Position numbers and translations under genes: made by a program. Under the pieces are notes generated by a model. The model was not told where the DNA came from, searched no databases, and worked only from the letters and a program-made list of their open reading frames with translations. Below are positions 1,882-57,299 of a stretch of 64,000 bases of DNA, piece after piece (the first letter of the stretch is position 1; each line of letters starts with the position of its first letter). Origin of the DNA: an uncultured Alphaproteobacteria bacterium (GTDB lineage Bacteria > Pseudomonadota > Alphaproteobacteria > Rs-D84); the NCBI GenBank assembly GCA_946188105.1, contig CAMHTQ010000004.1, positions 41,890-105,889 on the forward strand. The letters are read 5' to 3'.

Positions 1882-3147
1882 TTATTTACATTCTGCAATC
1901 AATTGACTAATTTGTGCAGATAAAACCAAATCTGTTTCTTTTAATTTTTCAATTTGTTTAATTGAATACATAACTGTTGCATGATCACGATTGCCAACAT
2001 ATTGACCGATTTCTGACAAAGACAAACGTGTTGAATTTTTCAAAACAACCATAATGATTTGACGAGCCAACACCAATGCACGTGCACGACCACTGCCACA
2101 GATTGCATCGTATGCGACACCTAATTTTTCACAAATAGATTTTACCATTGCAATTGGTGTTTTGAATTTTTCCAATGTATCTGATAACAAATGTTCTGCT
2201 GTATCTAATGTGACATTGCAACCCATCAATTCTGTATATGTTTTGATTTTGTTTGCAACCCCAGCAACCATATGTCCATCACATGCAATACGATTCGCCA
2301 AAGCATCAGCAACATCAGATTTAACCCCAGCACGAATCAACATTGTACGTTTTACCATTGCATTTGGTGCTGTAATATCTGCGACCAAACCAGATGCCAA
2401 CAATGATTGAGCATGACGATCAAAACCTGTTAAATTATTTGGTGCCGCACTGGATGTCAAAACAATGTTTTTACCGGCATTACGTAATTCTATAACCAAC
2501 TGTAAAAATTCATCCATAACAACACGTTTACCTGCCAATGCCTGAACATCATCTAAAATAAATGTATCACAATTACGACAATAATCTTTGAAAGCGAAAA
2601 TGGTATGCTTTTGCAAATTACGAATCAATTCAGAAACAAATTGGCCACCTGTCATCATAACCACATTTTTCGATTCGGATTTAATGCAATTTGCCAACAA
2701 TGTTTTTCCACAACCCGCAGGACCATAGATAAACAATGGAGAAAAAGAAACGGCAGCCGAAGCAATCTTTTTCGCTGCCGATAAAACAAATGCATTTTCT
2801 TCAGATGGTATGAATGCATCAAATGCAACAGATTCACAAACATCATTTATTGCAGGTGCATATGATTGAACATTATTATCATTTGCAATAGATGTCACCG
2901 CATTACCACGAACTATTACTAATTCCAAACCGAATTCCGCAGCAACATCTTTTAACAATGTTCCATAAACACCAGAAATGTAATCCAAAGAAAATTGATT
3001 TTCAGCAGTTAATACTAATACTTTATCAGAAATTTCAAACTTTAATGGGGCAATCCAAGAAGTAAAGGCCGCACAATCCATCCGCTCTGCAATCATATCT
3101 TTGATTGTCGCGATGCTTGTGTTTTGTTTTACTGATACTGCCTGCAT
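1882..3147 (-). CDS. dnaA: Chromosomal replication initiator protein DnaA
   Basis: AAA+ Walker A GPAGCGKT, an ..FILDDVQ.. box, and a C-terminal DNA-binding domain (..LSEIGQYVGNRDHATVMYSIKQIE..) typical of DnaA. Confidence 0.85.
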   Translation of the reverse strand: MQAVSVKQNTSIATIKDMIAERMDCAAFTSWIAPLKFEISDKVLVLTAENQFSLDYISGVYGTLLKDVAAEFGLELVIVRGNAVTSIANDNNVQSYAPAINDVCESVAFDAFIPSEENAFVLSAAKKIASAAVSFSPLFIYGPAGCGKTLLANCIKSESKNVVMMTGGQFVSELIRNLQKHTIFAFKDYCRNCDTFILDDVQALAGKRVVMDEFLQLVIELRNAGKNIVLTSSAAPNNLTGFDRHAQSLLASGLVADITAPNAMVKRTMLIRAGVKSDVADALANRIACDGHMVAGVANKIKTYTELMGCNVTLDTAEHLLSDTLEKFKTPIAMVKSICEKLGVAYDAICGSGRARALVLARQIIMVVLKNSTRLSLSEIGQYVGNRDHATVMYSIKQIEKLKETDLVLSAQISQLIAECK

Positions 3148-6419: not shown

Positions 6420-6440
6420 CCAAAACCAGATTAAAAAATT

Positions 6441-6469
6441 ACTCGCAATTTTTTGCGAGTATTTTTTTT
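6441..6469 (+). terminator. Rho-independent terminator after rpsT
   Basis: Hairpin actcgcaa-tttt-ttgcgagt followed by a T-run. Confidence 0.6.
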
Positions 6470-6530
6470 ATATATATACTCTTGAGGAATCCACCATTTT
6501 ATGCTATATAGATATCAAAGGATATAAACA

Positions 6531-7463
6531 ATGACGGATTTAGATGAAGAATTATTCTTTTGTGTTATAAAAAATCAACCAATCAAAATACTTCAAACAC
6601 TTTTAGACATGGGTGCAAATATTAATGCCCGCGATGAAAATAGTTGCACACCGCTATTTTATGCAGGATCTGCAAAAACCATAAAGTTTTTAATCGATAA
6701 TGGTGCTGATGCAAAAGTAAAAAACGAAGCAAACATGACACCATTATTCATAGCAAAATCCCCAGAATGTGCACAAATACTTATCGATAATGGTGCTGAT
6801 GTTAATGCTATTGCTAAAACTGGCGAATCCGCATTATTTTGGGCAACAAACACTGATGTTGCAAAAACACTGCTTGATAATGGTGCAAACATTAACATTA
6901 TCGATGAATATGGATCCACAGTATTACATAAAAAAGCAATACACGATGAAAATTACGATATTGTAAAATTACTGATTGAACATGGTGCAAATGTTAATGC
7001 CCAAGATACACCAGAAAGAAATACACCATTACATAACACAACATCACCCAGAATCGCCCAATTACTAATTGATAATGGTGCAAATGTTAATATAAAAAAT
7101 AAATTTAATGCAACACCATTATATTGGACATACAACCCCCAGGTTGCACAAATATTGATTAATAATGGTGCCAATGTAAATGAAAAAACAATTGGTGATG
7201 ACACACCATTACATCATGCCGATAAACAAATGGCAATGGTATTAATTAAAAATAAAGCTGATGTAAACGCAAAAAACAAACTAAAACAAACACCACTGCA
7301 TCATGCATGCATGGATGAAAATTTGGATGTTATAAAATTATTAGTAAAAAATGGTGCTGATATAAATGCCCAAGATAAAAATGGCATAACACCTTTTGGG
7401 TTTGCTAAAGAAACAGGAAACAAAAAAATAATTACATACCTGAAATCACTAGGTTCGAAATAA
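6531..7463 (+). CDS. Ankyrin-repeat protein, a candidate host-interaction effector
   Basis: At least eight tandem ~33-aa ANK repeats (..TPLH.A......V..LI.NGADVNA..). Confidence 0.85.
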   Translation: MTDLDEELFFCVIKNQPIKILQTLLDMGANINARDENSCTPLFYAGSAKTIKFLIDNGADAKVKNEANMTPLFIAKSPECAQILIDNGADVNAIAKTGESALFWATNTDVAKTLLDNGANINIIDEYGSTVLHKKAIHDENYDIVKLLIEHGANVNAQDTPERNTPLHNTTSPRIAQLLIDNGANVNIKNKFNATPLYWTYNPQVAQILINNGANVNEKTIGDDTPLHHADKQMAMVLIKNKADVNAKNKLKQTPLHHACMDENLDVIKLLVKNGADINAQDKNGITPFGFAKETGNKKIITYLKSLGSK

Positions 7464-7492
7464 AAAACTCGGGAACATTTCCCGAATTTTTT
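7462..7492. terminator. Bidirectional rho-independent terminator
   Basis: A-run, hairpin tcgggaa-cat-ttcccga, then T-run, lying between convergent genes. Confidence 0.55.
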
Positions 7493-7502
7493 ATTACTAC
7501 TT

Positions 7503-8081
7503 TTACTTACTTATACATTGTTGCTTATATTGTTTTATACAATTTTGACGCATTTCAACCTGAGCAAACAAATCTTGTCTGGATGCATGATTTAATCTGG
7601 ATACTTCACTTAAATCAGCTTCATTCAGGTTTGACATAAACAAACATTTACCTTCATCTACATTTTCAATATGAGCAACTGCAAATTTATTCAGTTTATG
7701 AAAATGCATATGATTTTGTGGGAACAATGTTAATACAGGTTCGCCAGTGGCTTTATCTAAATATTCAACGATTGTAGATCTTAACTTTTCACTCATAACT
7801 GGTTTCAATTTATCAAATGCATATACCATTTGTGTTGCCCCAGGATTAGGAAATGTTGTTCCACGCATCCAATCGCCCTCTTTTTGTTGTGGCGCACCAT
7901 TTAATGTTATAACAGATATCGGTGTACAAGGACACTCTGAAAACAAAGATAAATCTGCCATAATATTGTTTAACTTAACAACATATGTATTTTTCTTTTT
8001 ATGTGTTGGCCCAAATGTTCTTTTTGGTTGAACATTTTCAACAGCATTACCTTTAACATCTTTCTTAGCGAATAAACTCAT
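7503..8081 (-). CDS. Hypothetical protein with no signal peptide, encoded 121 bp downstream of the secretin gene
   Basis: 192-aa ORF on the same strand as the secretin. I recognise no family. Confidence 0.45.
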   Translation of the reverse strand: MSLFAKKDVKGNAVENVQPKRTFGPTHKKKNTYVVKLNNIMADLSLFSECPCTPISVITLNGAPQQKEGDWMRGTTFPNPGATQMVYAFDKLKPVMSEKLRSTIVEYLDKATGEPVLTLFPQNHMHFHKLNKFAVAHIENVDEGKCLFMSNLNEADLSEVSRLNHASRQDLFAQVEMRQNCIKQYKQQCISK

Positions 8082-8202
8082 ATCGGCCTCCTTGATTAAT
8101 TACACAATATATTATAGACAAATATTTTATATTGTCAATACTTATATTCCAATAAAAAAATCCGGGCATAACACCCGGATTCTCATTTTCCATAAAAACT
8201 GT

Positions 8203-9852
8203 TTAATTTAATGGAGCCCCCCAATTTTGTTGGATACTGCGTTCTGCATCCAATGGACTGATTAAAACTTGTGGTGTCAATATAACAACCAACACATCAC
8301 GTCCTGACGATGTTGAACGAGAACCTGACAATGCCATGAAATCAGGATCGCCTAAACCATAACGTGTGTCATTATTCTTTTGCTTTTCAAATCCAGACAC
8401 AACCAACATTTGACCAGATTCCATAATCACTTCTTGCATAAAGCTACGTTCTTCCACTTCGGGTAACTGTAATGTAACCTCGCCAATTGTCTGGGTTGAC
8501 ATCTTGATCAATTCACGAACAGACATTCTGAACAACAGCAAGATTTTGCCATTTTCCAAAACATTTGGTAACAACTGCATTGAAAAACCTGTCTGCAAAT
8601 CCGCCTGGTCAACGGTACTGGATTCCACAGTTGTAAAGTTACGTGATTCAAAACGTTTAATATATCCAGTTGATGTCATATTGCTAACTGGGGCAACACG
8701 ATTATTACGGGTTGTCACACCAACGTTTGTAACCAATGACACCTTACCCTGCTTTGCCAATGCCTCAATCAATCCAGCACTGCCAGCACCACGTGCCAAC
8801 GAGCCGTTCATAATTTGATCATTGGTATATGCACCATTAACCACACTGCCATTTTCTGTATGTGTCGCACCCGTTGTCGCAGACAATGCATTTGACAACA
8901 CCGCGATATTCATCGAACTGGCACCTGCCGCAGCCAAGTTATTCTTTGGATTTGCAACGATATTCAAACCCGATGTAGAATTAATAGCCGCAGCCAAATT
9001 CAAACCGAAAGCAGAATCATTAGATATAGAAACCTGCAACACCTTAACATCAATTGTTACCAATTGAGACAAACGTTTATTTTGCTTTTCTACATAATCA
9101 CTGATACGAGCCAACACAGATGGAGGTGCCGTTGCGGTAATTGTTCCCAAACTGCGAGAAACGGTAAATCCAGAATTTTCAGCCTTGCCTACGATTGCGG
9201 TCAATGCCTTTTCAACCTCGTCCCATTCCTTCATTGTGGATTCCAACACAACCTGGCCAGAGTTATCTGCCTGGACAGCTGTTTGATAAGAAATATCTGT
9301 TCCCAACGCATACAATGTAAATGTTCTTGTTTCTGTTTCATAGAACACAATGGCATTTTTATCATAATACCATAACAAATCTAAATCAGTCGCAACCTGA
9401 GACAACAAACCAGATAACTTGCCAGTATAGGCGACATTAATTGTTTTCTTTAACTTTTCACTATTAATTTGCTTATCAATTTTAACCGGAATTCTGGTTA
9501 CATTGTTTATGTTATTTGCCAAAACCTGCAAAGTTACAGGTTCATCCATTACAATTGTAATTCCAGTATCTGTTTCAAACTGGGCTGGCAAATTATTTTT
9601 ATGTTCCAAAGAGATTGATTTATTACCCAACCAAACACCCTCGGACATAGAAACCGTATCCCCACTTGCAACCTTGGCACGTGGATTTTTGGCCATTTCA
9701 AAAGCATCATATGCATTAACAAAATCCTGATCCACAGTCGATGCAACCTTTGCCGATTGTTCACGTGCACAGCCCGACACCAATGTACACAAACAGACAA
9801 TCATTAATATCTTTGTTAATAATCTCATATTCACTCTCCTAACTGTGGACAC
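8203..9852 (-). CDS. Lipoprotein secretin of the type IV pilus / type IVb family (PilN, TcpC, BfpB or MshL-like)
   Basis: Lipobox LVSGC after a signal peptide. The probable true start is the internal Met at 9828. The C-terminal secretin domain reads ..LQLPEVEERSF.QEV.MESGQMLVVSGF...GLGDPDFMALSG....RDVLVVILTPQVL. Confidence 0.75.
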   Translation of the reverse strand: MSTVRRVNMRLLTKILMIVCLCTLVSGCAREQSAKVASTVDQDFVNAYDAFEMAKNPRAKVASGDTVSMSEGVWLGNKSISLEHKNNLPAQFETDTGITIVMDEPVTLQVLANNINNVTRIPVKIDKQINSEKLKKTINVAYTGKLSGLLSQVATDLDLLWYYDKNAIVFYETETRTFTLYALGTDISYQTAVQADNSGQVVLESTMKEWDEVEKALTAIVGKAENSGFTVSRSLGTITATAPPSVLARISDYVEKQNKRLSQLVTIDVKVLQVSISNDSAFGLNLAAAINSTSGLNIVANPKNNLAAAGASSMNIAVLSNALSATTGATHTENGSVVNGAYTNDQIMNGSLARGAGSAGLIEALAKQGKVSLVTNVGVTTRNNRVAPVSNMTSTGYIKRFESRNFTTVESSTVDQADLQTGFSMQLLPNVLENGKILLLFRMSVRELIKMSTQTIGEVTLQLPEVEERSFMQEVIMESGQMLVVSGFEKQKNNDTRYGLGDPDFMALSGSRSTSSGRDVLVVILTPQVLISPLDAERSIQQNWGAPLN

Positions 9853-9859
9853 AGTTTAA

Positions 9860-10705
9860 TTATTCTTCATTAGTAGAAATCACCAAAACCAAATTTCCTT
9901 TATAGAACTTTGCATATGGCACAGGTGTTGCGCGTCCAAAATTACGAACCAGCGCAGATGCAACATCGGTAAAGCGACCTTTGAACACGGCACTTGCCTC
10001 GATTGGATATTCACGGGATGTTGCCCAAACCAAATCCCAACCTTCTTTATCACACCAACTTTGCAAAACCTCGCGCAGGGTTTGACCGTTTGCAACAACC
10101 CAAGAACGCACTTGATCTGTGGCGCCCTTTGGTGCCTCGGCATCAGAATCAGATTTCACAGCAATTTCAGCCATATCTTTTTCTGAATCCATTTCCATAA
10201 ATGCGGCATCCATGGCACCATTACGTTTTGTGCAATTTTTACGACCACTGCGAGAAACAGCCAAAACATTACCGCCATCATCTTCTAAAACCTCGCGACG
10301 TAACAAAGGCATTTCAGCACCATTTTCGCATTCATCATCAAATCCCATTGGAATTTGATTACCGTGCAACATATTGGCACCACCCGTCCATCCAGTTCCA
10401 TCAAAATCAAAACTGTTATCAACAATCATATCATCCCCGATTTTAGAAACGATACGGATTGAATCCCCGTTATTGACCTTGTCTTTGTCATCACATTTTA
10501 CGGTAACATCGGCATCAGAGCCCGCGATTGGCCACGCAGGAACATTAGCATAAGCCGCAGTTTCCACAGTAACCTGATCCTTGTTCTCTACCTGGGTTTG
10601 TTTAGTAAAAACCTCAGAAGTTGTAACCTGGGGTAAATATTCGCCGGCAAAACAATAGCCAGCAGCCGTTGCAAACATTGCAAAAATCAAAAACTTACGA
10701 AACAT
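9860..10705 (-). CDS. Secreted secretin-associated protein with a C-terminal TcpQ/STN-like domain (a PilL/TcpQ-like partner)
   Basis: Signal peptide. The C-terminal ..GQTLREVLQSWCDKEGWDLVW...YPIEASAVFKGRFTDVASALVRNF.. matches the secretin-associated STN/TcpQ pattern. It sits 8 bp upstream of the secretin gene. Confidence 0.5.
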   Translation of the reverse strand: MFRKFLIFAMFATAAGYCFAGEYLPQVTTSEVFTKQTQVENKDQVTVETAAYANVPAWPIAGSDADVTVKCDDKDKVNNGDSIRIVSKIGDDMIVDNSFDFDGTGWTGGANMLHGNQIPMGFDDECENGAEMPLLRREVLEDDGGNVLAVSRSGRKNCTKRNGAMDAAFMEMDSEKDMAEIAVKSDSDAEAPKGATDQVRSWVVANGQTLREVLQSWCDKEGWDLVWATSREYPIEASAVFKGRFTDVASALVRNFGRATPVPYAKFYKGNLVLVISTNEE

Positions 10706-10871
10706 TTAAATGTCCTTTCTTTCAATCTAGATACCTATATTATAACAATTTGACCGAATCTGTGCAAGACTAAAAAACACATATTTTATTGTTTTTATTT
10801 TCTTTCTATAAAAACATACGAATCGCAAAAATGTATGCTATACTTACATTGACAAACACAGGAGTTTTAAC

Positions 10872-11414
10872 ATGGAAACCATAATTATTTTATCTTTGAC
10901 CGCATTAATTTTCATAGTTGCCGTTGCAACATTTGTGATAATCCACAATCAAAACACAAAAATTGCAAATATCAGCAACACATTAACCTTTCAATACAAT
11001 ATGATTATGAAAATCCAATCTGTGTTAAAAAGTAAAGATGCCACAAACGCTGTTGCCGAACACGCAGAAATTGTCTATTCAGATTTATTGCAAAATTTGA
11101 TTCCAATTATGGCTGCGATTGACACTATGCCACGCAACACGACCGAGCATCCATTATGGCGTGCATTGGGTGGAATTATGGATGAATATGCCAAAAACCC
11201 ATTTACTTTGGAAAAACTCCGCCGCAGTATAAAACTGGATAACAACATTGCACAAAACGTCAATAATTACATCACACGTGCAAACAGATTATTACAGTAT
11301 TTAACAACCACAGAACCTGATGGAATATTGACATCGACATTTACAGACGGACTTTTGGGACAATCCTTAACATTTTTCAGTCAGGCACAACAATTAGCAG
11401 AAAACGGTGATTAA
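10872..11414 (+). CDS. Hypothetical membrane-anchored protein, translationally coupled to sufB
   Basis: One N-terminal TM helix. Its stop lies 2 nt before the sufB start. Confidence 0.45.
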   Translation: METIIILSLTALIFIVAVATFVIIHNQNTKIANISNTLTFQYNMIMKIQSVLKSKDATNAVAEHAEIVYSDLLQNLIPIMAAIDTMPRNTTEHPLWRALGGIMDEYAKNPFTLEKLRRSIKLDNNIAQNVNNYITRANRLLQYLTTTEPDGILTSTFTDGLLGQSLTFFSQAQQLAENGD

Positions 11415-20673: not shown

Positions 20674-21969
20674 ATGAAAAAATTCTATATAAAAACTTTT
20701 GGTTGCCAAATGAATGTATATGATGGACAACGCATCGCTGCGATGCTGGAACATCATGGTTTTATACAAACAGATAATGTTGCCGATGCTGACATAATTC
20801 TGTTAAACACATGTGCAGTGCGTGCCAAGGCAACCGACAAAGTTTATTCTGCATTGGGACGTATTCGTCTTGCAAAAAAGCCCGATGCAATATATGGAAT
20901 TATTGGATGCGTTGCTCGTGAATCTGGCAGTGATGCATTTAGAAAAATCAAAGATTTAAATTTCGTACTGGGGCCACAAAGTTATCATAAATTACCAGAA
21001 ATATTATCAGATCCAGATAATAAATTATTAGATATAAATTTGGGCGGTATTGAAAAATTTGATGAATTACCACCTATATCAACATCGCCTTTGGTTGCAT
21101 ATATTCCTGTCCAAGAAGGTTGTAATCATTGTTGCACATATTGCATTGTTCCATATACACGTGGACCTGAAATATCACGTCCATTTTCTGATATAATGGC
21201 GGAAACAATGCATGCAGCCGACATTGGTGCAATTGAAATTTGTTTCCTGGGACAAAATGTAAATGGATATAAATTTACCGATGAATCTGGAAAAACATAT
21301 AAATTATCCGATGTAATCCAAGAAACCGCAAAAATTGATTCGGTAAAACGTATCAGATTTACATCCAGTTACCCAACCGAAATGACAGATGATTTAATCA
21401 ATTTATTTGGTCACGAGAAAAAATTATTGCCATTTTTGAATATGCCAATTCAAAGTGGTTCTGATAATATTTTAAAGAAAATGAATCGTCAATATAACAT
21501 TGATGAATATATGGCACTTATCAACAAATTCAAAACCGTTTGCCCAGACATTCAAATATCCAGTGATTTCATTGTTGGATTTCCTGGGGAATCAAACGAA
21601 GATTTTGAACAAACATGCGATATTGCAAAACGCGTTGGTTACATAAATTCATATTCATTTAAATATTCGCCACGTCCACATACGGCTGCGGCAATTATGC
21701 AAAATCAGATTCCAGAAAATATAAAAAGCGAACGTCTGATAAAACTGGATAGCATACTAAACGACAGACAACGTGAATTTAATTTATTTTGTGTGGATAA
21801 AACATTTGATTGTCTGTACGAAGGCCCCGATAAAACAGGCACCCATCAAATTTACCGTACTCCATATATGCAGCCATGTATTGTGACGTCCAACACCCCC
21901 AGTCCAATGGCACGTATCAAAATTACATCAGCAAACAAATCATGCTTGCACGGTAAAATTATTGATTAA
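20674..21969 (+). CDS. miaB: tRNA-2-methylthio-N6-dimethylallyladenosine synthase (MiaB family radical SAM methylthiotransferase)
   Basis: MTTase N-terminus (FGCQMN), radical-SAM CxxxCxxC (CTYCIVPYTRG) and a TRAM C-terminus. Confidence 0.85.
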   Translation: MKKFYIKTFGCQMNVYDGQRIAAMLEHHGFIQTDNVADADIILLNTCAVRAKATDKVYSALGRIRLAKKPDAIYGIIGCVARESGSDAFRKIKDLNFVLGPQSYHKLPEILSDPDNKLLDINLGGIEKFDELPPISTSPLVAYIPVQEGCNHCCTYCIVPYTRGPEISRPFSDIMAETMHAADIGAIEICFLGQNVNGYKFTDESGKTYKLSDVIQETAKIDSVKRIRFTSSYPTEMTDDLINLFGHEKKLLPFLNMPIQSGSDNILKKMNRQYNIDEYMALINKFKTVCPDIQISSDFIVGFPGESNEDFEQTCDIAKRVGYINSYSFKYSPRPHTAAAIMQNQIPENIKSERLIKLDSILNDRQREFNLFCVDKTFDCLYEGPDKTGTHQIYRTPYMQPCIVTSNTPSPMARIKITSANKSCLHGKIID

Positions 21970-23444
21970 AATCCCAACTTTATATTCGCAGAAACTTTAC
22001 CAGAAACGCCAAAATCTGTATTCAATATTCCAACAGATACCGTTCCACCTATTTTATCAGGAACCGCCCATGCACCCAATCCAATACTGGCATCAAAATC
22101 ACCATGTGAATTTATACCTGTATGCAAAACATAATTATATTTAACACCATCCATAAAATAACCGAATCCAACATCTGTTCCTAAATTCACAAAAGAATAA
22201 TTTTCATGTATATCAACAACAGATTCCGAATCGATTCCATACCCTATAAATGGTGATAAATATAATCCAGATTCAAATCCAAACCTGGCACCAAAATCTA
22301 ACTTGCCATATACACCAAACGCATCTGGGTCATTTTTTGTTGTATTACCTTTGACAACACCATCACATTCAATATCTGAAAAACTGAAACCACCAACACC
22401 ACGCACAAATAACAACTCATCCACATCATAATTAAACCGCAGATTTCCGCCATATACACCAGATTTAAAATTACTCACATCATTTTTGAATTCGGATTTA
22501 ATCATATATGCACTAACACCAACAGACAACCGTCCATCAATTTTAGTTCCAGAATTTAATTTTACACCTGTACCCTGCAAACCCTTAGCATTGTAATATT
22601 CTGGCACCACAGATACAAAAAATTCATCTGAAAATTCATAAAAATCTAATATTTCATGTCTGTTCACAATCATCATTGGCCGTAATAACATATCCGGATT
22701 TTTCTGCACAGAATATTTCAAAACCTTTTGTGCATGCAGTGCACTCTGGCGTGCAGCCAAATAAGAATCTGAATATCTTCTCTTTACGCAAACCCCTATT
22801 CCGTCCGAACAGGTTGCCCAATAATAATCATAATTACCAGATTCTGCTTCTTCACGAACATTAATTCCCATATAGTGTTCTATATTATCAAATCTTAATA
22901 TCTCATCAGAATTTATTGACACAGAATTCAAAAAATTATCTGTCAGTTTTATCTGGGTATTACTTTCCTTGATAATATGCCCTGTAAACCGACCATCAAA
23001 TCCCGTATCCGCAACCAATACTAAACCGGGGACAGAACCACCACCATACAGGTCAAAATTTATATCTATACTATTTGCATTTTGTGAAATCGTATCCAGA
23101 TCCGCCAACAAATAATCGCCACCATTATTTATCAAAATATCTAATGAAACATTTGTCCCAATCGGTATTAAATTCATTTGTGTTGGATTGCTGATTATTT
23201 GTAAAACTTTTGAACCAACGGCATTACCCGTAATATTATTTGATATGGTATTATTATTTGTGATTCTTAATGTACCACTATCAATTATTAAATTATCAGA
23301 TATAACACCATTATTTACCAAATAATCCCCATCATGAAACAAGAATCCACTTGGCAAACTTGTATCGGTATAATCTGTTGCAAAACAACATACCGGCCAC
23401 ACCAAGTTCAACATCAAACCAAAAGCTATCCTTGTTCTTTTCAT
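21966..23444 (-). CDS. Autotransporter outer-membrane protein
   Basis: Signal peptide from the internal Met (MKRTRIAFGLMLNLVWPVCCFA). The ORF track start at 23492 is the alternative. N/G/I-rich beta-helix-like passenger and a C-terminal beta-barrel ending ..IKLGF. Confidence 0.65.
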   Translation of the reverse strand: MKRTRIAFGLMLNLVWPVCCFATDYTDTSLPSGFLFHDGDYLVNNGVISDNLIIDSGTLRITNNNTISNNITGNAVGSKVLQIISNPTQMNLIPIGTNVSLDILINNGGDYLLADLDTISQNANSIDINFDLYGGGSVPGLVLVADTGFDGRFTGHIIKESNTQIKLTDNFLNSVSINSDEILRFDNIEHYMGINVREEAESGNYDYYWATCSDGIGVCVKRRYSDSYLAARQSALHAQKVLKYSVQKNPDMLLRPMMIVNRHEILDFYEFSDEFFVSVVPEYYNAKGLQGTGVKLNSGTKIDGRLSVGVSAYMIKSEFKNDVSNFKSGVYGGNLRFNYDVDELLFVRGVGGFSFSDIECDGVVKGNTTKNDPDAFGVYGKLDFGARFGFESGLYLSPFIGYGIDSESVVDIHENYSFVNLGTDVGFGYFMDGVKYNYVLHTGINSHGDFDASIGLGAWAVPDKIGGTVSVGILNTDFGVSGKVSANIKLGF

Positions 23445-23591
23445 ACCGAATATGGTAATAAACCGCACACAAAAATAAAAGAAAAAATTCACATTTTCCT
23501 AGGCATCCATACCTGTATAAAATCCGTCCCAGTTTTGATACCATATCAGTATCGGCACAAAGATAAACAAAAACTCAAAAAGGAGAAAAAA

Positions 23592-24200
23592 ATGAAAAAA
23601 CTTGCTATTTCTACACTTGCTGTATTAATTGCATGCCCTGCATTTGCAGGGAACCCTCGTGATGGCAGTTCCTGGCAAATTTGGGGATTGGATCCATACG
23701 TTGCATTACGTGGCGGTATTGCTTCATCAAACTTGAACTACAAGTTCCTGGGTCACAAAGAAACCATATCTGACGCAACACTCCAAGGTCGTGCAGCTAT
23801 GGGTTTACAAATGAACAAATGTTACCGTACTGAATTAGAATGGTCTATATACAGCAAGGCCAAAGATACATCCAGTTTCGGTTTAGCGAATGACATCAAA
23901 GTCGAAAGCAAAATGCAAACATTATTGATGAATGCATTTATGAACATCGGTTCATACAGCACGGTTCGTCCATTTTTGGGTGTTGGTGCCGGTGTCGGAT
24001 TCTCTGACGTTAAACGTTCCGGTGCAACAATTGAATCACATACCCAAAACAAAGCTGGATTTTCAGCCACAGGTATTATGGGTATGACATTCGATATGGA
24101 TCAATTTGCCGTCGATGTTGCAACCAGATACACCTATGTTGATGTTCATTCTGGAATGCATAACTTTGGTGCAGATGTTGGCATCAGATTTATGTTCTAA
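23592..24200 (+). CDS. Outer-membrane beta-barrel protein (OmpW/OMP_b-brl-like)
   Basis: AGGAG RBS, signal peptide, alternating amphipathic beta strands and a C-terminal aromatic (..GIRFMF). Confidence 0.65.
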   Translation: MKKLAISTLAVLIACPAFAGNPRDGSSWQIWGLDPYVALRGGIASSNLNYKFLGHKETISDATLQGRAAMGLQMNKCYRTELEWSIYSKAKDTSSFGLANDIKVESKMQTLLMNAFMNIGSYSTVRPFLGVGAGVGFSDVKRSGATIESHTQNKAGFSATGIMGMTFDMDQFAVDVATRYTYVDVHSGMHNFGADVGIRFMF

Positions 24201-55355: not shown

Positions 55356-57299
55356 TTACTTCTTTTTTTCTATTCTATATGCAATAAATCCGCCAATTAC
55401 ACTAATCATCAAAATTATTAAAAACCATGCATCACGACCTAATAATCTGTATAATGTCATATGACTGCCACGAACTGTGCCATCTAAAATACCTGACTGC
55501 CCTATTGGTAAACTGGATATAATTTTACCATCCGCACCAATAAACGCACTAATACCAGAATAATTAGCCCTGATTACAGGCATTCCATATTCAATTGCCC
55601 CCCGACGTGCCATATCCATATGTTGATATGTTCCAGGTGTCGCACCAAACCAAGTATCATTTGACACATTTATAATTGCATCTGCAACCTCATCTTTAAT
55701 AACCGCATCTGAAAAAATAATTTCATAACATACAGCCGGTGCAAAAACGAATTTCTTGTCTTTATTTATCTGTAACGCAATTGTTCTGGCACCACCCCCA
55801 GATGTTAAATTAGCAGGTGTCGGCACAAACTTAATCGGGCCATATTCACCAAACGGAACCAAATGGGATTTACCATAAAATTCAATCATTTTTCCAGAAC
55901 TATCAGATATAGCCAATGCGTTATAAACCTTTCTGTCATAATCAACAACATTTGCACCAATTAAAACCGGTATTTTTAATTGCTTCGCAATCGGCATATA
56001 ATCATCAGGCATTAACGCAAATGGATAAGATGTTTCAGGATATAAAGCAACATCTACATTTGACACATCACCAGCCATTTTTACCAATTCTTCGACCCGA
56101 GCTTCTGCCCGATTTAATGCATCCGCACGCGATAAAGCAATCTTGGACTCTTGTGTTGTAACTGGTTGCACAATACGCACAACAATCGAATTTTCACCCA
56201 AATTTGATACAGATATATTGTTATACCCATATCCCATTCCAACACACAATAAAATAAAGAAAAATCCAAAAGAAACCCAATTTACTTTGTTTGCCCTGTT
56301 ATGTAAAATCTGTACAACCGACGCAATCATACCCATTATAACAAATGTCAGCCCCAATGCACCAAACAAAGACATAGAGTTAGAAATCACACCACTGGAC
56401 AATGTTATATTTGAAATTGGATTCCATGGAAATCCAGTTAAAAACCATTCACGCAACCATAAAACAAATGTACAACCAAATGCGAACACAAATGGCTTTA
56501 CGCCTGATTTAGTGTATATACATTGTGTAAATACATACGGAATAACAAAGAATATAATACCAAAAATTCCAATTCCGATTAACGCTGGCACGGTCCAAAC
56601 TGCAAATTGTTTTGTTATTTCTGGAACAACATAAATAGAATGCACAGTCCACCAAAACATAGAAATTGAATACATGGCACCAAACGGCATTGCCCGTAAC
56701 CAAGCCCGCCAAAAACCGATTTTTTCATTATCTAAACACAATAACCAATATGCACCTGCAATTGCTAAAACTGTTACCCACCACATATTAAATGGCGCAA
56801 ACCCTAATGACGCAACCCCACCAAACAATGCACATAAAAGATATTTCCACCATGCAAATTTTTTTGTATTTTCATCCATATATGGATTTTTTATTCTCAA
56901 TTTTTTCAATACAGCAATTTCTTTTGATTCCATCACTTTGGCCTGAGCATCCGTTAAATGATCATATCCCAACAAATGAAACATGCCATGCACAACCATA
57001 TGCGCAACATGATCTTCGACAGAAATTTTAGCATCTTTGGCCTCGTGAACAACAGTATCTAATGAAATATAAATATCACCCAACAATATATCATCACCTA
57101 ATTCAAAAGATAAAACATTCGTGGGCTTATCCATATCACGATACATTTTATTCAATGCATGAATTTCATCATCATCAACCAAAGTAATCGAAACTTCAGA
57201 TTTTTTATATTTTATTCCAACGACCGCATTTGCAATTTTTTCAAAATTGATATTATATTTTTTCCAACGCTTATCATTATAATTAACAAAAACCTTCAT
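55356..57299 (-). CDS. lnt: Apparent in-frame fusion of the rRNA maturation RNase YbeY (N-terminal ~140 aa) with apolipoprotein N-acyltransferase Lnt
   Basis: YbeY motif ..HMVVHGMFHLLGYDH.. in the first ~140 aa. From ..MDENTKKFAWWK.. onward there is the Lnt multi-TM region plus a CN-hydrolase domain. No stop separates them in the 647-aa ORF. Confidence 0.7.
   Translation of the reverse strand: MKVFVNYNDKRWKKYNINFEKIANAVVGIKYKKSEVSITLVDDDEIHALNKMYRDMDKPTNVLSFELGDDILLGDIYISLDTVVHEAKDAKISVEDHVAHMVVHGMFHLLGYDHLTDAQAKVMESKEIAVLKKLRIKNPYMDENTKKFAWWKYLLCALFGGVASLGFAPFNMWWVTVLAIAGAYWLLCLDNEKIGFWRAWLRAMPFGAMYSISMFWWTVHSIYVVPEITKQFAVWTVPALIGIGIFGIIFFVIPYVFTQCIYTKSGVKPFVFAFGCTFVLWLREWFLTGFPWNPISNITLSSGVISNSMSLFGALGLTFVIMGMIASVVQILHNRANKVNWVSFGFFFILLCVGMGYGYNNISVSNLGENSIVVRIVQPVTTQESKIALSRADALNRAEARVEELVKMAGDVSNVDVALYPETSYPFALMPDDYMPIAKQLKIPVLIGANVVDYDRKVYNALAISDSSGKMIEFYGKSHLVPFGEYGPIKFVPTPANLTSGGGARTIALQINKDKKFVFAPAVCYEIIFSDAVIKDEVADAIINVSNDTWFGATPGTYQHMDMARRGAIEYGMPVIRANYSGISAFIGADGKIISSLPIGQSGILDGTVRGSHMTLYRLLGRDAWFLIILMISVIGGFIAYRIEKKK

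Follow-up and report, generated by a model that had tools for sequence, protein, structure and literature searches.

We report here that two adjacent genes on the minus strand of a 64,000-nucleotide (nt) stretch of DNA from an uncultured Alphaproteobacteria bacterium (NCBI GenBank assembly GCA_946188105.1, contig CAMHTQ010000004.1, positions 41,890 to 105,889; hereafter, the whole stretch is called the window) encode a lipoprotein secretin and a TcpQ-like periplasmic partner. Very probably, this pair is the outer-membrane half of a chromosomal type IVb pilus-like machine, of the kind represented by the bundle-forming pilus (BFP) and the pilus of R64, which is core to Candidatus Enterousia and related Rs-D84. 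Judged from gene order, the system is split into two loci in Enterousia, while its contiguous form survives in sister lineages. That the two proteins bind each other and the two loci cooperate, as well as the nature of the fibre and its biological role, we infer from the comparisons presented below. Enterousia belongs to the order Rs-D84, whose members are common in gut and rumen, are uncultured, and have genomes of <1 Mb (∼0.75–1.0 Mb in Enterousia); they have no tricarboxylic acid cycle, respiration, or standard transporters and are proposed to depend on a partner, and the published survey mentions type IV pili for a different lineage only (PMC12306168).

The longest open reading frame (ORF) form of the secretin gene spans 8203–9852 on the minus strand and encodes 549 amino acids (aa) from a GTG start at 9852. 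This form had been adopted in an earlier, first-pass annotation of the window, which accordingly placed it only 8 bp from the partner gene. However, an ATG at 9828 has the ribosome-binding sequence AGGAG 7 bases ahead of it, and this sequence falls inside the GTG-started extension (AGGAGAGtgaatATG). Since the ribosome-binding site sits just ahead of the ATG and homologues are 540–542 aa long, the real start is most likely the ATG at 9828, giving a secretin of 541 aa (8203–9828) and a gap of 31 nt between the TcpQ-like gene and the secretin ATG. The N-terminus of the 541-aa protein, MRLLTKILMIVCLCTLVSGC, carries the lipobox LVSGC, whose Cys, residue 20, is nearly invariant in the secretin family alignment and is the predicted acylation site.

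Several lines of evidence place this protein in the PilN/BfpB class of type IVb secretins. Pfam Secretin (PF00263) matched aa 364–530 of the 549-aa ORF (E = 7.9e-13; 48.8 bits against a cutoff of 27.5), and the top NCBIfam model was TIGR02520, the PilN type IVB secretin (E = 5.5e-71; 239.7 bits), followed in second rank by MshL, which matched the C-terminal half (E = 3.1e-26). The secretin family profile aligned with BfpB (9u5s_A) over nearly its full length (E = 2.6e-102), whereas other secretins, such as GspD and PilQ, reached 1e-16 at best; when the window secretin alone was searched using phmmer, BfpB was the sole match (E = 6.3e-37). An AlphaFold2 (AF2) model, with a predicted local distance difference test score (pLDDT) of 65, contains N0-like, N3-like, and secretin domains together with a long β-hairpin barrel. 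Foldseek with this model again returned 9u5s_A as the top match (E = 4e-31; template modelling [TM] score 0.56/0.64), compared to TM scores of ∼0.3 for other secretins. The layout thus runs from the lipobox through an LG-like N-terminal stretch to N0, N3, and the secretin domain, with no N1/N2 and no S domain and only ∼19 residues after the secretin domain. In BfpB, residues I46, Y47, and I48 are essential to BfpG binding (PMC12531336). In a HMMER alignment, these three residues pair with V65-W66-L67 of the 541-aa secretin, corresponding to V46-W47-L48 of the mature protein, and in the secretin family alignment the W, the L, and the G after them each reach ≥90% conservation. AF2 confidence is low at aa 46–76, i.e., in the predicted partner-binding stretch, which is what a segment taking up its fold on a partner protein would be expected to show.

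The gene directly upstream (9860–10705, minus strand) encodes a TcpQ/BfpG-like periplasmic partner of 281 aa with a cleavable signal peptide (MFRKFLIFAMFATAAGYCFA). We also considered this signal peptide as a lipobox, a reading that was ruled out, as Tyr precedes the Cys. Pfam TcpQ (PF10671) matched aa 200–277 (E = 2.2e-17; 63.3 bits against a cutoff of 27), and a profile of the TcpQ-like family found a single match in the Protein Data Bank (PDB), namely BfpG (9u5s_R; E = 1.1e-16). Across an alignment of 36 homologues, the signal peptide is followed by a conserved middle domain, a variable linker, and the C-terminal, N0-like TcpQ domain (aa 200–277), which is nearly invariant. The middle domain (aa ∼55–160) has invariant cysteines at C71, C126, and C158, is absent from BfpG, and gave no match to a known family. 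The first-pass annotation had proposed a secreted protein with a TcpQ-like C-terminus, paired in type IVb style with a lipoprotein secretin carrying a canonical C-terminal domain, and the family and structure matches bear out each part of that proposal.

We then consider how widely the pair is kept. A genome scan with the secretin found 312 stretches encoding a relative, from which the best 80 loci, at species level, were retained. Close homologues came from gut and rumen metagenome-assembled genomes named Candidatus Enterousia or unclassified Alphaproteobacteria/"Rickettsiales," and the window's organism is assigned to Candidatus Enterousia. The secretin reads through unbroken in all 80 loci, and the TcpQ-like gene lies directly upstream of it in 78, the other two loci ending there. 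The flanks are likewise constant, with orf180-sufB-sufC on one side and rpsT-plsY-orf269-dprA-dnaA on the other. Median identity across these loci was 81% for the secretin, 75% for SufB, 71% for SufC, 72% for PlsY, and 62% for DprA. In an exhaustive search, the secretin cluster representatives comprised one Enterousia cluster at 81%, after which identity dropped to 41–42% and lower. With both genes unbroken and in conserved order, and with secretin conservation no lower than that of SufB, the pair is, on this comparative record, not a remnant. In the window, dnaA (1882–3147) lies ∼5 kb from the module, and this near-dnaA position of the pair is kept across the genus.

Pfam scans of the other sizeable ORFs in the window turned up no match to pilins, prepilin peptidases, T2SSE ATPases, or T2SSF platform proteins, and tblastn of the window with PilO, PilP, the ATPase, and PilR of sister lineages gave no match. 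A relaxed prepilin-motif scan of the window and the fetched loci returned only TatA and orf180-type false positives. This agrees with the first-pass annotation, which had seen none of these components and had called the module an orphan, i.e., either a stand-alone channel used by machinery encoded elsewhere or a remnant. We used outgroup homologues for a profile search and then read the genomic contexts of the proteins that were found. Two metagenome-assembled genomes, L083 (GCA_031549365.1; 63% secretin identity to the window) and L085 (GCA_016735395.1), have PilO (PF06864), a PilP-sized gene, a T2SSE ATPase, and a T2SSF platform gene directly after the pair. The canonical PilN cluster of Collimonas arenae has the same order and continues with PilS, PilM, PilV, and a soluble lytic transglycosylase (SLT) gene. 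The contiguous clusters of the sister lineages show the ancestral arrangement. Three Rs-D84-like contigs (L084, L086, and L087) carry the pair in its Enterousia-type context without pilOPQR. Directly upstream of the TcpQ gene in L085 (L085:8218–9153) are two small ORFs, paralogues of 155 and 131 aa (∼39% identical), with hydrophobic N-termini; they gave no family match and are not obviously pilins.

The PilO of L083 matched one Enterousia locus, L038 (contig JAZRIB010000007.1); here, ∼9 kb separate the secretin from the start of pilO, which lies on the far side of dnaA and is cut off by the end of the fetched sequence. Scanning metagenomes with an alignment of PilO then yielded 161 stretches, and all of these loci long enough to show it carry PilO, PilP, the ATPase, and the PilR platform, followed by gyrB. 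Their ATPase is 69–77% identical to that of L083, and upstream of pilO, as in L038, are a kdtA-like gene, lpxK, lpxC, and a small lipoprotein gene. There was no TcpQ or secretin gene within 10 kb of these PilO loci. Several of the PilO-bearing contigs measure 0.6–0.9 Mb, about a whole Enterousia genome. In one such locus (L153), the encoded proteins match PF06864, T2SSE, T2SSF, and TIGR03021 PilP, the last at 31 bits, just under the cutoff; its ATPase is closest to BfpD (E = 3.5e-76, compared to ∼1e-47 for GspE and PilF), with BfpD also far ahead of PilB. The contigs carrying secretin P0020 (human gut) differ from those carrying PilO, and the same-contig evidence comes from L038 alone. We also noted that the lipoprotein encoded directly upstream of pilO (124–138 aa; L153:9454–9870) is present in 72 of 80 PilO loci, with a median identity of 77% compared to 51% for PilO and 62% for LpxC, and has no Pfam or NCBIfam match; this lipoprotein may represent a part of the pilus machine that has so far gone unnoticed.

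The "orphan" look of the pair is therefore resolved because the operon is split, with the motor genes at a second locus. Cognate pilO, pilP, ATPase, and platform genes occur throughout Enterousia, and L038 has the secretin and the start of pilO on one contig, so the label of orphan does not hold. Among the options the first-pass annotation had left open, machinery encoded elsewhere is what the second locus provides, whereas a remnant does not fit an intact pair. A full adjacent cluster, which it had said would make the locus ordinary, stands beside the pair in sister lineages L083 and L085, but none is adjacent to the pair in the window.

The closest known counterpart is BfpB–BfpG of enteropathogenic Escherichia coli (PDB 9u5s). 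Secretins of the type IVb class are lipoproteins and do not require a pilotin; in BfpB, an N-terminal LG domain extends from the lipid anchor to N0, and BfpG, which is N0-like, as is its homologue TcpQ, docks on the C-terminal portion of LG, with BfpG and BfpB forming a 17:17 ring around N3 (PMC12531336). Both BfpB and the window protein are lipoprotein secretins with an LG-like N-terminus, N0, N3, and a secretin domain but no S domain, and in both systems a small N0-like partner is encoded immediately upstream. The predicted partner-binding residues are alike at mature positions 46–48, the secretin matches BfpB best in both sequence and fold, and BfpG is the sole PDB match for the partner. 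Nevertheless, the window secretin is only ∼22–25% identical to BfpB, and the 281-aa partner, with its extra Cys-containing domain, is larger than BfpG (∼114–133 aa). Moreover, the Enterousia genes are chromosomal core genes rather than part of a virulence plasmid, and the rest of the operon lies elsewhere.

The R64 PilL–PilN system provides the best family model, TIGR02520, and the order in the sister lineages, i.e., TcpQ-domain protein, secretin, PilO, PilP, ATPase, and platform, is identical to it. R64 PilL is a lipoprotein, whereas the window partner is not. Compared with R64/PilN clusters (e.g., that of Collimonas arenae, L168), the secretin scores under the cutoff and PF07655 is absent, while in Enterousia the operon is split and no PilS, PilM, PilV/shufflon, or SLT gene follows. 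Relative to the conjugative thin pilus of R64 or of the PAPI-1 integrative and conjugative element (ICE), the genes are core and chromosomal in >80 species and are accompanied by neither transfer genes nor a shufflon. The toxin-coregulated pilus (TCP) of Vibrio cholerae also combines a TcpQ-family partner with a lipoprotein secretin, TcpC, the latter being likened here by description only; in contrast, the TCP operon is contiguous and includes the pilin and peptidase. MshL of the mannose-sensitive haemagglutinin (MSHA) pilus, the second NCBIfam match, covers the generic secretin part only, at 92 bits against a cutoff of 250, and MSHA systems are not known to have a TcpQ partner. By analogy, the pair would work like BfpB–BfpG, TcpC–TcpQ, and PilN–PilL, whose superfamilies it shares.

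On the model of these systems, the secretin would be exported, acylated at Cys20, and delivered via the Lol pathway to the outer membrane; the window has genes for both LolA and Lnt. There, it would form a multimeric gated channel, and the soluble, periplasmic, N0-like TcpQ-like protein would bind it between the lipid anchor and N0, hooping the secretin ring as BfpG does on BfpB. An inner-membrane half, consisting of PilO, PilP, a BfpD-like assembly ATPase, and a GspF-type platform, would be supplied from the second locus by gyrB and would assemble a filament or pseudopilus passing through the secretin channel. The likeliest use of such a machine would be attachment to a partner or host cell.

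A number of observations weigh against assigning the pair to a BFP/R64-type machine. The secretin, at 239.7 bits, falls below the curated equivalog cutoff of TIGR02520 (287.65 bits), and its L083 homologue scores 237.3 bits. In addition, the Pfam scan did not detect Secretin_N_2 (PF07655) in the window secretin or in any Rs-D84-like homologue, although it is found in the PilN proteins of Collimonas, Rugamonas, and Burkholderia. Because the PilN equivalog threshold is missed and Secretin_N_2 is absent, the protein is best placed, on its sequence, within the type IVb secretin class, as a divergent branch from Alphaproteobacteria. For the TcpQ-like protein, the AF2 model, built on a shallow alignment of 36 sequences, has a pLDDT of 37 and is unusable, and the additional middle domain has no counterpart in BfpG. 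Neither the window nor the fetched loci yielded a pilin, prepilin peptidase, PilM, PilV, or PilT. We infer the presence of pilOPQR in the window's own strain from genus-wide conservation and one same-contig case (80% secretin identity). Finally, the 80 loci were ranked by secretin similarity, and the comparison of conservation is somewhat biased toward the secretin.

Three other explanations can be set against the same evidence. A split type IVb-like machine might serve not as an attachment pilus but as a piston resembling a type II secretion system, secreting, e.g., strain-specific effectors, or as a device for DNA or nutrient uptake. Some type IVb systems also secrete proteins, as the TCP system does with TcpF; the surroundings of both loci yielded no gene for a pilin or an adhesin; and dprA lies four genes from the pair. 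Uptake would also suit the biology described for Rs-D84, which has no standard transporters, is missing many pathways, and is proposed to be partner-dependent (PMC12306168). Still, we consider secretion or uptake rather unlikely: the recognisable parts all best match true type IVb assembly components (BfpB, BfpG, BfpD, and PilO), no secretion substrate was identified, and dprA is near-universal, so its closeness to the pair is no evidence for uptake.

That the secretin is instead a stand-alone orphan channel, or the decaying trace of a lost pilus system, would agree with the absence of partner genes from the 64-kb window and with a published Rs-D84 genome survey that reports type IV pili for another lineage only (PMC12306168). 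Yet it is very improbable given a pair that is intact in 80/80 loci, a secretin at least as conserved as SufB, a conserved partner-binding motif, and pilOPQR genes found throughout the genus and on the secretin's own contig in L038. A mobile origin, with the pair belonging to an R64- or PAPI-1-type conjugative thin pilus of a plasmid or ICE, is improbable in the extreme. While the R64 PilN family is the best NCBIfam model and a hypervariable site lies just downstream of the secretin, >80 species keep the pair between sufBC and rpsT-plsY-dprA-dnaA, its GC content is like that of the rest of the window, and neither a relaxase, type IV secretion system gene, integrase, or tRNA at the pair's borders nor a shufflon or PilV was seen.

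If the pair does belong to a type IVb pilus-like machine, it is an ordinary system of this kind with an unusual split layout; both proteins come from well-understood families, and the knowledge of secretins is unchanged. For Rs-D84, however, such a strongly constrained machine is a concrete candidate for contact with a partner or host, and in Enterousia it is absent from the reports of published surveys. We suggest only tentatively, as a reading less likely than not, that the split machine, which has no recognisable pilin or prepilin peptidase near either locus, is a universally retained envelope-spanning apparatus of the genome-reduced, probably partner-dependent order Rs-D84/Enterousia and its main device for partner or host attachment or for uptake from the partner or host; its role might then be analogous to the one that type IV pili are proposed to play in epibiotic Patescibacteria. 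For annotation, the lesson is that a seemingly orphan secretin can be half of a split operon, whose partner genes are traceable via sister lineages that keep the contiguous cluster.

Transcription signals around the pair were identified by a consensus scan. A promoter-like site (TGCACA, 16 nt, TG-TATAAT; 10739–10766, minus strand) lies ∼34 nt upstream of the TcpQ-like gene and has 10/12 consensus matches plus an extended −10 TG; it is putative, resting on the consensus match alone, and the two-gene operon likely starts there. A GC-rich palindromic hairpin, AATCCGGGCATAACACCCGGATT, found 22 nt past the secretin stop codon (8159–8181), is terminator-like and is likely the end of the operon, dividing it from orf192. 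After the hairpin, orf192 has its own putative promoter (TTGACA-16-TATAAT, 8138–8111) with 12/12 σ70 consensus matches.

This 192-aa ORF (7503–8081, minus strand) has no family match in Pfam or NCBIfam, and an ankyrin-repeat gene (6531–7463, plus strand) follows it between the secretin and rpsT. Both genes are missing here in the closest relatives (L001, L005, L006, and L081), where rpsT comes ∼100 nt after the secretin, and they are a strain-specific insertion outside the module. We also examined orf192 as a PilM, PilO, or CpaD candidate, which was ruled out, as it has no family match, is not syntenic, and has its own putative promoter; the first-pass annotation had suggested a comparison with these families while calling the ORF unrelated. 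Relatives of orf192 (29–43% identical) occur at other positions in 18/80 loci. The site at 6420–8200 is hypervariable, and strains with an identical secretin carry other unannotated genes there (592, 434, 502, and 351 aa); this hotspot may hold effector-like cargo.

On the other side of the pair, orf180 and sufBC diverge in transcription from the module, correcting the convergent orientation first given for the suf genes. orf180 (10872–11414, plus strand) lies just upstream of sufB; its product has a transmembrane helix at the N-terminus and matched no family. The gene keeps its position in all Enterousia and Rs-D84-like loci at 58–86% identity. As a pilin, orf180 was ruled out, having no Gly cleavage site and a Glu at position 2.

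The other sizeable ORFs of the window matched Pfam families of a parE/gyrB-type topoisomerase, dnaA, dprA, plsY, rpsT, sufBC, gatCAB, and a P-type ATPase; of OmpA, LptC, TatC, LolA, RecJ, a penicillin-binding protein, and SufE/S; and of threonyl- and glutamyl-tRNA synthetases (ThrRS and GluRS), Lnt, MucR, FtsK, and others. Cumulative GC skew declines monotonically over the window except at ∼16–20 kb, where it reverses slightly, and there is therefore no origin-marking skew switch in it. On the minus strand, a 647-aa ORF (55356–57299) joins a YbeY domain (aa 15–134) and a complete Lnt (aa 160–611) in one frame, representing either a gene fusion or two genes without an intervening stop codon. 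Lastly, an ORF with an autotransporter β-domain (21966–23492, minus strand) partly overlaps an Opacity-family porin-like ORF (23334–24200, plus strand), and these surface proteins (21966–24200) may be relevant to host contact.

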